Assembly (NCBI GenBank): GCA_027492035.1
Contig: JAOZFT010000004.1
Span: 32,001 to 96,000 of the forward strand
From: Thermoproteota archaeon
GTDB lineage: Archaea; Korarchaeota; JAOZGF01; JAOZFZ01
Reading direction: 5' to 3'
Length of the DNA stretch: 64,000 bases
The notes under the pieces were generated by a model. It had not been told where the DNA came from. It did no database searches and saw only the letters and a program-made list of their open reading frames with translations. Both the position numbers and the translations under genes were made by a program. Positions within the stretch are counted from its first letter, which is position 1. The number at the start of each line of letters is the position of its first letter. This document shows, piece after piece, positions 30,320 through 34,119 of the stretch.

Positions 30320-30997
30320 TTAAATTAATCTCTTCTCAATTTGTTTTAAGTATTGGTTTCTTGTTTCAGAAAATTTAGGAATTATTATGTGAATCTCTCC
30401 GAAGTTTTCGTCTTGTGAGATGTCGATTTTCTTACTTTTAACAAGGAAAAGAATGGAAATAAAAAGATCTATTATTTCTTCTTTGGGTTTACCTGAAATT
30501 AAGGCTGTAAAAGAGATTTTGCTTTTTCGGAGAAGCATCAACAGGGAATAGGTTTTGTGTATAGTTTCTGAAAAGTCAAATGTAAATACTTTATTGCTGA
30601 ATTCTTCCCTTTCCTCTATCTTATTTACTTCTGTTTTTCTCCTCCAGTACTTTCCCATAGATGCTTTAAGTGCAGAAACTAGTTCATCGTAGGTTATAAA
30701 CTCCCTTGTTTTGAGAATAGGCACTAAATTTACTTCCTCTGGATTTGTTTCTACCTTACGCACTTGCCTTTTTGAAACTTGCTTTTTCTTTTTCAAAATG
30801 TACTCTATCTTCATCCTCAGAAGGATGGCAGCAGCTAAAATTACTCTTCCAGAAATTTTGAGGTCTACTTCCACTTTCTCTATTTCTTTTAAATACTCAT
30901 CTGCTAAAGCTGAAATATCTATTTCCCAAGGGTTAAATTTCTCTTTTACTATTCGGTAAAGTAACCCTTCCCAATCCCTGAAATTAATTTTTTTCAT
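30320..30997 (-). CDS. scpA: segregation/condensation protein A (kleisin)
   Basis: NPWEIDI..LADEYL, SGRVILAAAILLRMK, C-terminal FISILFL...QDENFGEI; ATGA overlap with smc. Confidence 0.9.
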   Translation of the reverse strand: MKKINFRDWEGLLYRIVKEKFNPWEIDISALADEYLKEIEKVEVDLKISGRVILAAAILLRMKIEYILKKKKQVSKRQVRKVETNPEEVNLVPILKTREFITYDELVSALKASMGKYWRRKTEVNKIEEREEFSNKVFTFDFSETIHKTYSLLMLLRKSKISFTALISGKPKEEIIDLFISILFLVKSKKIDISQDENFGEIHIIIPKFSETRNQYLKQIEKRLI

Positions 30998-33849
30998 TTT
31001 TTAAACCTTAACATTACCACTCGCGAAAGGCCATCTTTCATTGTTACACCCACTAGCTGGTCAGCTTCAGCTAAAGTTTCCTTTTTAAGTGAAGCTAAAA
31101 TGAACTGGGTTTTTCTTGATTCCTCCTTTAACAACTTAGCGAATTTTTTACAGTTTAAAACATCCAAGGAGGAGTCAACTTCATCAAAAACATAGAAGGG
31201 AGATGGTTTAAATTTCTGGATAGCAAGTATGAAAGCTAAAGCCGTCAACGTTTTTTCTCCACCTGACAAAGCATCTATGTTAACTATTTTCTTTTCTGGA
31301 AGTTTAACTTCAATCACTAAACCGCTCTCTATTTCGTTTTCGTCCTCAAGCCTAAGTTTACCTTCTCCACCTGTTAGTTTATTAAAGACAAAGTTAAAGT
31401 TTGCAGAAACTTTTTCTAAAGTTTTTTTAAACACTTCCTTCTTTTTCTTTTCAATTTTATTAATTAAATCAAGTATTCTCTCCCTCTCCTCCAATACTTT
31501 TTGATACTTACTCTCTAAGTCATCTAATTCTTTTTTGAAAGAAAAATATTCCTCTTCAGCTTTGAAATTTAATTTCCCAAGCTGAGCAATCAATTTTTCA
31601 AGTTTTTCGATTTCCATCTTAGCCTTGTTTTCGTCTATGTCACCGAAAAGGTCTAGTCTTAAGCCTTTACTTTTCACTTCCTTCTTTAATCCTTCAAGTT
31701 CTGAATTTACTACAGCGAAGTTTATTTTTAGTTGCTCAAGTTGTTTTTTGCTCCATATGCTCTCCCTGAAAAAGCGGTCTTCTTCTTCCCTTAACTTTTT
31801 TAGATGCTCCTTAAGTTTTTTCCTTTTACTTCGCAATTCTTCAAAATTCATCCATTGATTTCCCATTTCAAGTAGTTTTTTATTTAATTCATTTATCTCC
31901 TTTTCTAGTTTAAGGTTTTCTTTTTCAAAGCGTTTTATTTCGTCTTCAACCTTAGTTCCTTTTTGGAAAACTGTTTTTTTAGCGTAGCCCCCAAAAACTA
32001 CACCATCTTTCTCAACTAAGTTACCGTTTAAATCCACTACCCGGTATTTCCCTATTTCACTTCTCCTTAATTTACGTATATCCTTTACAAGTAAGGTTCC
32101 CCCGAACACGTAATCAATTACTTTTCTGAATTTTTCGTCGTATTGAATGAAATCCTTTATTAAACCTAAACTTCTACTTTGCGGAGGTGGAGGTTTTTTT
32201 GTTTTGACGGTGTCTAATGGTATAAACCTTGCCCTTCCCACCTTTCCCTTTGTTAATATTTCTATACATTTCTTAGCTGTTTCAAAAGTATCAACCACTA
32301 TTAAGTTTAGTTTGGAACTTACCGATGACTCAATTGCTCTTTCATAGCCTTGTTTAGGTTTTATTAACTCGGAAAGTAAACCGTAAACCCCAGGTAGATT
32401 CTTGAGATGAATTGCTGCTTTTGGTTTAAATTTATCCAGGAGAGTGTTTAGTCTTTTAATTTCAGCTTCGTTAGCTTTCAGTTGAGCTTTTTTTACTTTT
32501 AAATTACTTTTTAAGTTTTCGTAACGTATAGATTCTGTTTCTTCAATTAATTTTTTCTCAATTCTTTCTATATCAGCCGTTTTCTCCCTTATTTCTTCCC
32601 TTATTTTGACTAATTCTTCATCATAATTTATTTTAGTGTAGTTTTTTATTTGGTTCTCTATTGAAGCCTTTTTCTCGTTTAAGCTTCTGAAACGGGAAAC
32701 TAAGATACTGTCTTCCAAGTGCTTCCTTCTTTCCTCTAGTTCAAAGTACTTCTTCATTTTTTCTATTTCTTTCTCTAAATTTTCAACTATTCTCCTTTTC
32801 TCGTCAATTATTATTTTTATTTCTTGGAGTTTTTGAAGAGTTTCCTCTAGCTTCTTTAAAGCTCTCTCTTTCTTTTCTTCATATTCACCTATGCCGCTTA
32901 TTTCGTCTATTATTCCTCTCCTTTCTACAGGTTTCATTTTAACAATTTTTGTTACGTCACCTTGTAACACAATGTTATGACCACTTGGTTGGAGACCATA
33001 CCTAGCTAACATGTCCATAACAACTGTCCTGGTTGCTCTTTCCCCGTTTAACCTGTAAACACTCTGTCCTTTATTTGAAATCTCTCTTGAGATTTCGATC
33101 TCTTCCCCTTCCCCCTTGAGCTTTAAAGAAACTTTAGCTTTCTTTTTTTTCAGTTTATTGCAAATTAATTGGGTTAAGTTTTCAGCTCTTAGGTTTTTGG
33201 AGCTTCTAACCCCTAATGTGAAGTTTATTGCTTCAATAATGTTTGAGTTGTGGATAAAAATGTTGTTACCTACAAAATTGTGTGTAAAGGGAATGAATAA
33301 ATCATAAACTTTCCCCTTCTCTTGGAAATAATTTATTTTCTTAATTATGTCAATTCCCAGTTTGTCACTTTTTTCCACATAAGAAAGTATTTTTATTCCT
33401 TCTTCCAAGCTTCTTGCTTCTAAAAACTTGAAGATGTTGTTTTGAATAACTAGAATGGGATGGTCAGAAGTTGTCTCTATTTTTCTCCCTTTAATTGTTT
33501 CTATTTCCAGTATTTCTCCGTTGTTCATTTTTTCTACGAAAAAAGACAATTTACTTTTGCAAAGGGAGCTGGTGGCTGGGTTAAAAGTAAGAATTTTGTA
33601 AGGGGATTCCTTCCAGTAGTAGAAAAAGCCTTCAGGTGAAGGTTTTCTTTCACCTTTCTTCTTTGCTTCATCCACTATTTTCTTTATTTCAAGTGGTTCA
33701 TTGTCTACTAACTGAATCAAAGTGTCCCCTTTTACACATTTCCCGCTTCCGTTAGGTCCAGTTATAGCATTAAAACCTGTTGAGAAGGGGATCTTAGCTC
33801 TTTTAAAGGATTTGAAATTTCTGAGGGTTATTGATTCAATTTTCAACAA
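30994..33849 (-). CDS. smc: chromosome segregation ATPase SMC (short-armed), intein-containing precursor
   Basis: NFKSF, Walker A GPNGSGK|SN split by an insert, Q-loop LQGDV, hinge GVYGLLSELI..GRARFIPLD..GGY, signature LSGGEK, Walker B FDEVDSSLD. Confidence 0.93.
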   Translation of the reverse strand: MLKIESITLRNFKSFKRAKIPFSTGFNAITGPNGSGKCVKGDTLIQLVDNEPLEIKKIVDEAKKKGERKPSPEGFFYYWKESPYKILTFNPATSSLCKSKLSFFVEKMNNGEILEIETIKGRKIETTSDHPILVIQNNIFKFLEARSLEEGIKILSYVEKSDKLGIDIIKKINYFQEKGKVYDLFIPFTHNFVGNNIFIHNSNIIEAINFTLGVRSSKNLRAENLTQLICNKLKKKKAKVSLKLKGEGEEIEISREISNKGQSVYRLNGERATRTVVMDMLARYGLQPSGHNIVLQGDVTKIVKMKPVERRGIIDEISGIGEYEEKKERALKKLEETLQKLQEIKIIIDEKRRIVENLEKEIEKMKKYFELEERRKHLEDSILVSRFRSLNEKKASIENQIKNYTKINYDEELVKIREEIREKTADIERIEKKLIEETESIRYENLKSNLKVKKAQLKANEAEIKRLNTLLDKFKPKAAIHLKNLPGVYGLLSELIKPKQGYERAIESSVSSKLNLIVVDTFETAKKCIEILTKGKVGRARFIPLDTVKTKKPPPPQSRSLGLIKDFIQYDEKFRKVIDYVFGGTLLVKDIRKLRRSEIGKYRVVDLNGNLVEKDGVVFGGYAKKTVFQKGTKVEDEIKRFEKENLKLEKEINELNKKLLEMGNQWMNFEELRSKRKKLKEHLKKLREEEDRFFRESIWSKKQLEQLKINFAVVNSELEGLKKEVKSKGLRLDLFGDIDENKAKMEIEKLEKLIAQLGKLNFKAEEEYFSFKKELDDLESKYQKVLEERERILDLINKIEKKKKEVFKKTLEKVSANFNFVFNKLTGGEGKLRLEDENEIESGLVIEVKLPEKKIVNIDALSGGEKTLTALAFILAIQKFKPSPFYVFDEVDSSLDVLNCKKFAKLLKEESRKTQFILASLKKETLAEADQLVGVTMKDGLSRVVMLRFKK
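33247..33738 (-). mobile_element. mini-intein (164 aa, no homing endonuclease) in SMC Walker A
   Basis: Block A CVKGDTLI, block B TTSDHPIL, block F VYDL..PFTHNF, block G IHN followed by Ser(+1); excision restores GPNGSGKSNI. Confidence 0.93.
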
Positions 33850-34119
33850 AGCAACCTCTCAAAAAGGGATGAAGGAAAATCTTTTGCAGAATCAACAATA
33901 AGGAAGAAACGTGTCCCCTTGAAAAGGATGAGAACTTTTAAAAGTTTATTTTTAAATTTTTATACTTAAAAGGAAAATTAAAAATCATTAAAACAATTTG
34001 ATGTTTTCCATTGGAAGGGACAGAGGGGTAAAAATAGGGCAGGGAGTTAATTTGTACTTGTTTGAAAACCCTTAAAAAGTTTTTTCATTAGAGAAATAAG
34101 GAAGTAATGGAGAAAAAAT

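Follow-up and report, generated by a model that had tools for sequence, protein, structure and literature searches.

Inteins of P-loop ATPases and the SMC host

Insertion sites of inteins in P-loops have been described in DnaB, MCM and RFC, and the archaeal SMC ATPase is stated to contain inteins as well (Novikova et al., Mol Biol Evol 33:783, PMC4760082). In a supplement of that survey, the sheet 'Other_Archaea' carries a column 'Smc_COG1196...P-loop' with one entry, Candidatus Nanosalina, whose intein belongs to the same class of host protein, archaeal SMC (COG1196); 'P-loop' in the column name may denote the protein class, not the site (PMC4760082). Here, the smc gene of an uncultivated korarchaeal archaeon (assembly GCA_027492035.1, contig JAOZFT010000004.1, positions 32,001 to 96,000) is described, in which the Walker A motif is split by a predicted class-1 mini-intein. 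The whole 64,000-nucleotide stretch that was analyzed is called the window, and all coordinates refer to it. The element is best read, with a probability of about 85%, as a standard selfish class-1 mini-intein that has lost its homing endonuclease and occupies a widely used site between the Walker A lysine and serine of SMC.

By sequence (E 8.7e-13 and 5.5e-12) and also by fold, the best solved relatives of this intein are PhoCDC21-1 and PabCDC21-1 (6rpq and 6rpp), which are 26-29% identical to it. Both are naturally endonuclease-free, ~165 residues long, and come from DNA-handling ATPases of hyperthermophiles; their host is archaeal MCM, not SMC, and we take them to be situated in the MCM P-loop (MCM site a of the survey). 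The RadA intein of Pyrococcus horikoshii (2lqm, 4e2t, 4e2u) is likewise a HINT mini-type from an archaeal DNA-repair ATPase, with a template modeling (TM) score of 0.83-0.86, although it lies in another host and shares 19-20% identity; conditional splicing has been shown experimentally for the RadA intein, which is the best-known case of substrate-stimulated splicing (PMC5238726). Beyond PMC4760082, one supplement of which was out of reach and may hold more, nothing relevant was found in the literature on inteins of SMC or condensin. The preprint bioRxiv 10.1101/2024.01.08.574615 mentions inteins only for RadA, and PMC10710043 makes no mention of SMC. As an intein host SMC is catalogued but hardly described, and the breadth of occupation reported below is not in print as far as was searched.

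A mini-intein between the Walker A lysine and serine

The features of the precursor that bear on the insertion are as follows.

30994..33849, minus strand: smc precursor reading frame, 951 residues, TTG start, intein included (uninterrupted open reading frame)
33739..33849, minus strand: N-extein, residues 1-37, up to and including the start of Walker A (in relatives, the match to residues 2-37 abuts that to residues 202-300)
33739-33759, minus strand: GPNGSGK, residues 31-37, first part of Walker A
33247..33738, minus strand: predicted class-1 mini-intein, 164 residues, Cys1 to Asn164, without homing endonuclease (intein models, fold)
33736..33738, minus strand: codon of Cys1 (block A; precursor residue 38), putative first-step nucleophile
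33460..33471, minus strand: block B, T90-S-D-H93 (TxxH)
33247..33309, minus strand: blocks F and G, VYDLFIPFTHNF ... NIFIHN, with His163 penultimate and Asn164 terminal (TIGR01443)
33247-33252, minus strand: His-Asn, precursor residues 200-201
33244..33246, minus strand: codon of the +1 serine (Ser202), both the Walker A serine (GK-S) and the putative second-step nucleophile
30997..33246, minus strand: C-extein, residues 202-951, the rest of the N-terminal head onward (open reading frame and Pfam)

An insert of 164 residues between Lys37 and the Walker A serine, at 33247-33738, had been proposed from the sequence, and these coordinates proved exact. In the C-extein, NIIEAINF follows directly after Ser202. 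Where an intein follows the GK of a P-loop, it is usual for the Walker A serine itself to be the +1 nucleophile. Scanned alone, the insert scores above the cut-offs of Pfam Intein_splicing (59.2 bits, cut-off 35.8), TIGR01445 intein_Nterm (53.9 bits, cut-off 24.5) and TIGR01443 intein_Cterm (18.3 bits, cut-off 15.6), and neither LAGLIDADG nor any other nuclease family was reported in it at E <= 0.1 in the scan with family models. The original prediction that blocks A, B, F and G are intact and that a LAGLIDADG domain is absent is thus borne out. Among solved structures, 24 chains of intein type match it at E <= 1, the best at 8.7e-13, which is far beyond chance.

All class-1 catalytic positions are kept, namely Cys1, T90xxH93, the aspartate and histidine of block F, His163-Asn164 and Ser+1. 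Block F begins at V144 of the intein (V144-YDLFIPFTHNF), its aspartate and histidine are both present in VYDLFIPFTHNF, and T90 and H93 are nearly invariant among the allelic inteins described below (alignment A1). For the fold, the insert was modeled by AlphaFold from a 17-row alignment and the model was compared with the PDB by Foldseek. The model is a complete HINT fold of high confidence (mean predicted local distance difference test score 96, predicted TM score 0.89), and its top matches are PhoCDC21-1 (6rpq) and PabCDC21-1 (6rpp), with a TM score of 0.89 and a root mean square deviation of 1.9-2.0 A. Inteins of RadA, VMA, PolII, PolB, TFIIB and DnaB come next, the top 13 ranks all being solved inteins; Hedgehog and bacterial intein-like (BIL) HINT domains appear lower, at E 7e-9 to 4e-7 as against 7e-15 for the top intein. 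Because the HINT fold covers all 164 residues and no nuclease family was detected, the insert is classed as a mini-intein. Its catalytic set and predicted fold together suggest an intein of class-1 type that is capable of splicing.

Empty sites in related genomes

A search with precursor residues 1-300 covered 40 related genomes, 31 of which have the matches to residues 2-37 and to residues 201/202-300 directly side by side, in open frames of 365-833 residues, the shortest of which are cut by contig ends. All 11 of the relatives' loci that were fetched read GPNGSGK-SN with no insert; G001 and G002, which represent the family's one other genus and the order's one other family, are among them. 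Cutting out the insert would thus yield precisely the sequence that the relatives have. A search across the phylum (43 species representatives including this one) gave no other smc matching through the intein part, which puts occupancy at 1 of 43. From these sequence comparisons the distribution is sporadic, and the element looks selfish. Matches of relatives to the intein part were considered as hidden SMC inteins and rejected, the five sampled frames being MCM (3), an Lhr-type helicase and TIP49.

Allelic inteins at the same position of SMC

Precursor residues 1-300 were also compared by HMMER with 1.84 billion representative proteins, which gave 2728 matches at E <= 0.001. The best 150 of these were classified by finding both extein flanks, with GxNGxGK followed by Cys or Ser at one junction, and His-Asn followed by Ser or Thr and then Asn at the other.

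Intein at the identical position, both junctions present: 69 of the best 150
Site empty: 61 of the best 150
N-extein followed by Cys, C-extein flank cut off or unrecognized: 11 of the best 150
...VHN ahead of the C-extein, N-terminal side missing or weak: 5 of the best 150
Not SMC: 4 of the best 150

The search for orthologs with and without the element, advised in the original prediction, thus yielded both (69 occupied and 61 empty). Three of the four proteins that are not SMC are MCM with several inteins. The fourth, P0072 (5631 residues), matches the query in 10 separate stretches, best at query residues 35-140, which suggests from its sequence that it may carry many HINT-type repeats.

Among the 69 occupied SMC proteins, 48 have inteins of 367-618 residues and 21 of 156-288 residues. 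The first residue is Cys in 57 and Ser in 12; at +1, 67 have Ser and 2 have Thr. All six large-intein proteins that were scanned with Pfam contain SMC_N, SMC_hinge, Intein_splicing and LAGLIDADG_3, whereas all four scanned small-intein proteins contain SMC_N and Intein_splicing without LAGLIDADG. Examples of endonuclease-bearing inteins at this site are P0027, P0039, P0005 and P0008, and of mini-inteins P0010 and P0015. The 12 Ser-first inteins (P0011, P0012, P0020, P0021, P0023, P0024, P0030, P0033, P0035, P0040, P0049 and P0050) are all large (525-558 residues) and cluster in the tree described below with one Cys-first intein, P0045.

The window intein is matched by all 69 (phmmer, E <= 8.8e-10), and its best non-self allelic match reaches 73 bits, compared with 51.5 bits for the best solved intein; it therefore belongs to the allelic family, distantly, the best allelic matches being ~35-40% identical over the matched stretches. 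Like these inteins, it interrupts SMC exactly between Lys and Ser/Thr of Walker A, and it has the same splicing blocks and the same extra helix-bearing stretch after block A (alignment A1). On the other hand, it is a bare splicing domain of 164 residues, unlike the 48 of 69 that contain a LAGLIDADG insert of ~350 residues. An intein-only search by word index found one protein, P0002 (94% identical), by a method that is too insensitive for this purpose.

To survey occupied genomes, one genome of each prokaryotic species was scanned for DNA that could encode GPNG(S/C/T/W)GK-Cys. The degenerate pattern finds only Cys-first inteins behind that exact motif, and it gave at least 120 loci. Both SMC exteins and an intein are present in at least 47 loci, all among the 80 that were fetched with full flanks. 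In at least 40 more (11 long-flank and 29 short-flank), the frame stays open for 100 or more residues beyond the N-extein, and the C-terminal junction is out of reach or unrecognized. Since the search is limited by the motif and 33 of the 120 matches listed are unrelated and not SMC inteins, the figure of 47 should be taken as a minimum and does not measure prevalence.

Judged by their record titles, the occupied species genomes comprise at least 19 archaeal and at least 28 bacterial ones, distributed as follows, each figure again meaning at least that many.

Archaea: Micrarchaeota, 5; Pacearchaeota, 4; Woesearchaeota, 3; Methanosarcinales, 3; Aenigmatarchaeota, 1; Thermoplasmata, 1; Nitrososphaera, 1; archaeon without finer taxon, 1
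Bacteria: Omnitrophota, 10; Chloroflexota including Limnocylindria, 7; Methylomirabilota/Rokubacteria, 3; Planctomycetales, 2; Pyrinomonadaceae, 1; Actinomycetes, 1; Chlorobiota, 1; Uhrbacteria, 1; Candidatus Undivivens, 1; bacterium without finer taxon, 1

The window intein is matched by all 47 listed loci (phmmer, E <= 3.9e-8). The best is L057, in a metagenome-assembled genome (MAG) of Pyrinomonadaceae, with 79 bits; L049 (Uhrbacteria MAG), L070 (Omnitrophota MAG) and L042 (Micrarchaeota MAG) are further examples. The suggestion that this insertion site might be new does not survive, given that 69 of the best 150 representatives and at least 47 species genomes are occupied and that SMC is named as a host in PMC4760082. 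Among P-loop intein sites in uncultivated archaea and bacteria, the Walker A motif of SMC is one of those often occupied, yet the literature searched has a single survey line on it. The window intein, as one more nuclease-free copy in a large and barely described family, has little significance alone. The site could interest those who catalogue inteins or who seek small, thermostable splicing domains that accept Ser at +1 as tools.

The smc gene and its operon

The motifs of the mature protein and the neighboring gene are as follows.

32953-32970, minus strand: Q-loop (motif in the C-extein)
32077-32394, minus strand: SMC hinge, precursor residues 486-591 (Pfam)
31249-31269, minus strand: signature LSGGEKT, C-terminal head
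31174-31197, minus strand: Walker B FYVFDEVD, C-terminal head
30320..30997, minus strand: scpA (kleisin), directly downstream of smc (Pfam SMC_ScpA 52.6 bits, cut-off 24.6)

The smc product is recognized by Pfam as SMC_N, with 195.7 bits, and SMC_hinge, with 102.9 bits. Among NCBIfam models, TIGR02169, for SMC of archaeal type, matches the product best (622.8 bits, scored with the intein included). All the ATPase motifs of SMC (Walker A, Q-loop, signature and Walker B) and the hinge could be located. The start of scpA overlaps the stop of smc by 4 bases, and the two genes are translationally coupled. Because of the head motifs, the hinge and the overlapping scpA, the locus is a real condensin operon of smc and scpA, in which the P-loop of SMC carries an insert.

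The mature SMC, of 787 residues, is a short form, with ~380 residues fewer than the 1165 positions of TIGR02169, and in this it differs from the hosts of the allelic inteins. From the position of the hinge in the precursor it follows that each coiled-coil arm has roughly half the usual length. SMC proteins are unusually short across the phylum, the relatives' frames that are not cut by contig ends having ~758-833 residues (loci L012-L022), and several empty-site SMC representatives of ~760-1010 residues were also present among the database matches. Within 33841-33866, translation of smc apparently starts at a TTG (33847-33849), a start predicted from the sequence, with a GAGG motif resembling a Shine-Dalgarno sequence a few bases upstream and a second in-frame TTG immediately after the first.

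Origin and history of the intein

P0002, from a near relative, keeps the intein. The two copies differ at 10 of the 164 residues of the intein, all outside the catalytic positions, and at 22 of the 787 residues of the exteins (97.2% identity). To place both copies, a FastTree phylogeny of 115 unique SMC-site inteins was calculated over 165 match columns and rooted at the midpoint. In it, the forms without a nuclease fall into 14 separate mini-only clades. The branch of the window intein and P0002 measures 1.5 substitutions per site, compared with a median of 0.22, and they group with six other divergent mini-inteins (support 0.95). The grouping is not trusted, nor taken to show that the endonuclease loss is shared by descent, because all its branches are long and the root is a midpoint root.

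Occupancy of 1 of 43 representatives in the phylum, together with the many endonuclease-bearing alleles elsewhere, fits a scenario in which an intein entered horizontally and then lost its nuclease. As the best matches are only ~35-40% identical and none of them is a close endonuclease-bearing sister, horizontal entry is something that we infer. Base composition was examined for a sign of foreign origin and is uninformative: the GC content of the intein is 0.329 and that of the exteins 0.334, and the GC content at third codon positions of the intein (0.348) lies inside the extein range (0.226-0.354).

Loss of the endonuclease had been taken to indicate long residence. A long residence is possible, because the SMC of this lineage diverges by ~40% from that of the nearest sampled genus, and it gains weak support from the long branch, the lack of a close endonuclease-bearing sister and a composition equal to that of the host gene. 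The empty sites of the sister genus and of every other phylum member examined speak against this part of the claim.

A proposed splicing pathway and the points against it

As a standard class-1 mini-intein, the element would splice in four steps. The peptide bond between Lys37 and Cys38 would be attacked by Cys1 in an N-S acyl shift; transesterification would move the N-extein onto the hydroxyl of Ser202 (+1); Asn164 would cyclize with help from His163, which frees the intein; and an O-N shift would form a native peptide bond between Lys37 and Ser202. The outcome would be an intact GPNGSGKS P-loop in an SMC of 787 residues, whose partner would be the adjacently encoded ScpA. Most probably, the intein splices constitutively and at a rate that leaves the cell with working condensin. 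The ancestors of the intein probably arrived horizontally as an endonuclease-bearing member of the SMC-site family; having no nuclease, the present form would be unable to spread by homing, and it would persist because precise deletion is rare.

Several observations weigh against this account. The score of the smc product against TIGR02169 is below the curated equivalog cut-off of 729.4, which is probably due to the short coiled coils and the insert. In 9 of the 40 relatives, the two SMC pieces are not both among the matches listed, and for G022, G027 and G035, which form one genus (g9), no match to the SMC C-extein is listed; the smc of these three may be divergent or unassembled. The intein differs from that of P0002 by 6.1% and the exteins by 2.8% (Fisher p = 0.052), and a faster change of the intein would also fit relaxed constraint. 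Finally, no close endonuclease-bearing sister was found among the sampled SMC-site inteins.

Alternative explanations

The alternative that survives best, improbable as it is, is a conditional splicing switch, in which the split P-loop would keep SMC inactive until a temperature, redox or DNA cue arrives, so that splicing gates condensin. With 164 residues between its Lys and Ser, the P-loop of the unspliced precursor would be disrupted and should not bind ATP productively, and since the insertion splits the ATP-binding loop, precursor and product should differ in activity. There are precedents in the recombinase intein that responds to single-stranded DNA (PMC5238726), in a mycobacterial DnaB intein responsive to oxidative stress (PMC6195587) and in the proposal that inteins act as environmental sensors (Novikova et al., PMC4760082). 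A second cysteine, at intein position 60, is kept in P0002 and could in principle pair with Cys1. However, nothing at the smc locus supports conditional splicing, and the position of Cys60 is not conserved among the allelic inteins (alignment A1). The redox trap of inteins is a disulfide between Cys1 and Cys+1, which is impossible here because +1 is Ser. The sister genus does without the intein and just one of the 43 representatives has it, which argues against a conserved regulatory role, and the 14 separate mini-only clades are as expected from the decay of a selfish element. If splicing were conditional, the locus would link intein biology to chromosome organization, but the present data give no hint of this.

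A dead insertion is unlikely. In this case the intein would no longer splice, smc would be an effective pseudogene and another SMC-like protein would compensate. The very long branch of the intein, its rate of change, ~2 times that of the exteins between the two known copies, and the lack of any remaining endonuclease are all compatible with such decay. In contrast, the catalytic residues are all kept in both copies, the predicted HINT fold is complete and confident, the smc frame is open over 951 codons, the two copies have nearly identical exteins, the ATPase motifs of SMC are intact and scpA is coupled to it.

It is very unlikely, in turn, that the intein has been kept in this thermophile-like lineage as a cue-responsive on-switch for the loading of condensin, for which temperature, redox acting through Cys1 and Cys60, or the binding of DNA or ScpA to the SMC head could be the cue; this would make it the first intein with a regulatory role in an SMC complex. 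A HINT-type domain of another kind, of BIL or Hedgehog-type autoprocessing, which would cleave instead of splicing and which has its lower-ranking Foldseek matches in its favor, is excluded for practical purposes, because the insert lies in frame within the most conserved motif of a housekeeping protein, begins with Cys and ends with His-Asn before a nucleophilic Ser, scores above the cut-offs of the intein-specific N- and C-terminal models, and restores the sequence of intein-free orthologs exactly when removed.

Other inteins in this genome and phylum

Besides the standard mini-intein of smc, this genome (G000) has further inteins, or weaker matches to intein models, at G000:C9:168135-168449 (L004), G000:C21:100666-101121 (L005), G000:C34:4054-4461 (L007) and G000:C19:29802-30053 (L010). 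Pfam Intein_splicing is matched in its Hel308-type DEAD helicase (41 bits) and HerA/DUF87 ATPase (38.9 bits), and below the cut-off of 35.8 in a MoxR-type AAA_3 ATPase (30.1 bits); an NrdD frame gives a weak match of 18.4 bits and no intein match at E <= 1e-4. Relatives in the phylum (L143, L144, L145 and L146; genomes G022, G027 and G031) carry endonuclease-bearing or large inteins, and the hosts there are MCM (in three genomes), an Lhr-type helicase and the archaeal TIP49 ATPase, each with an intein of its own.

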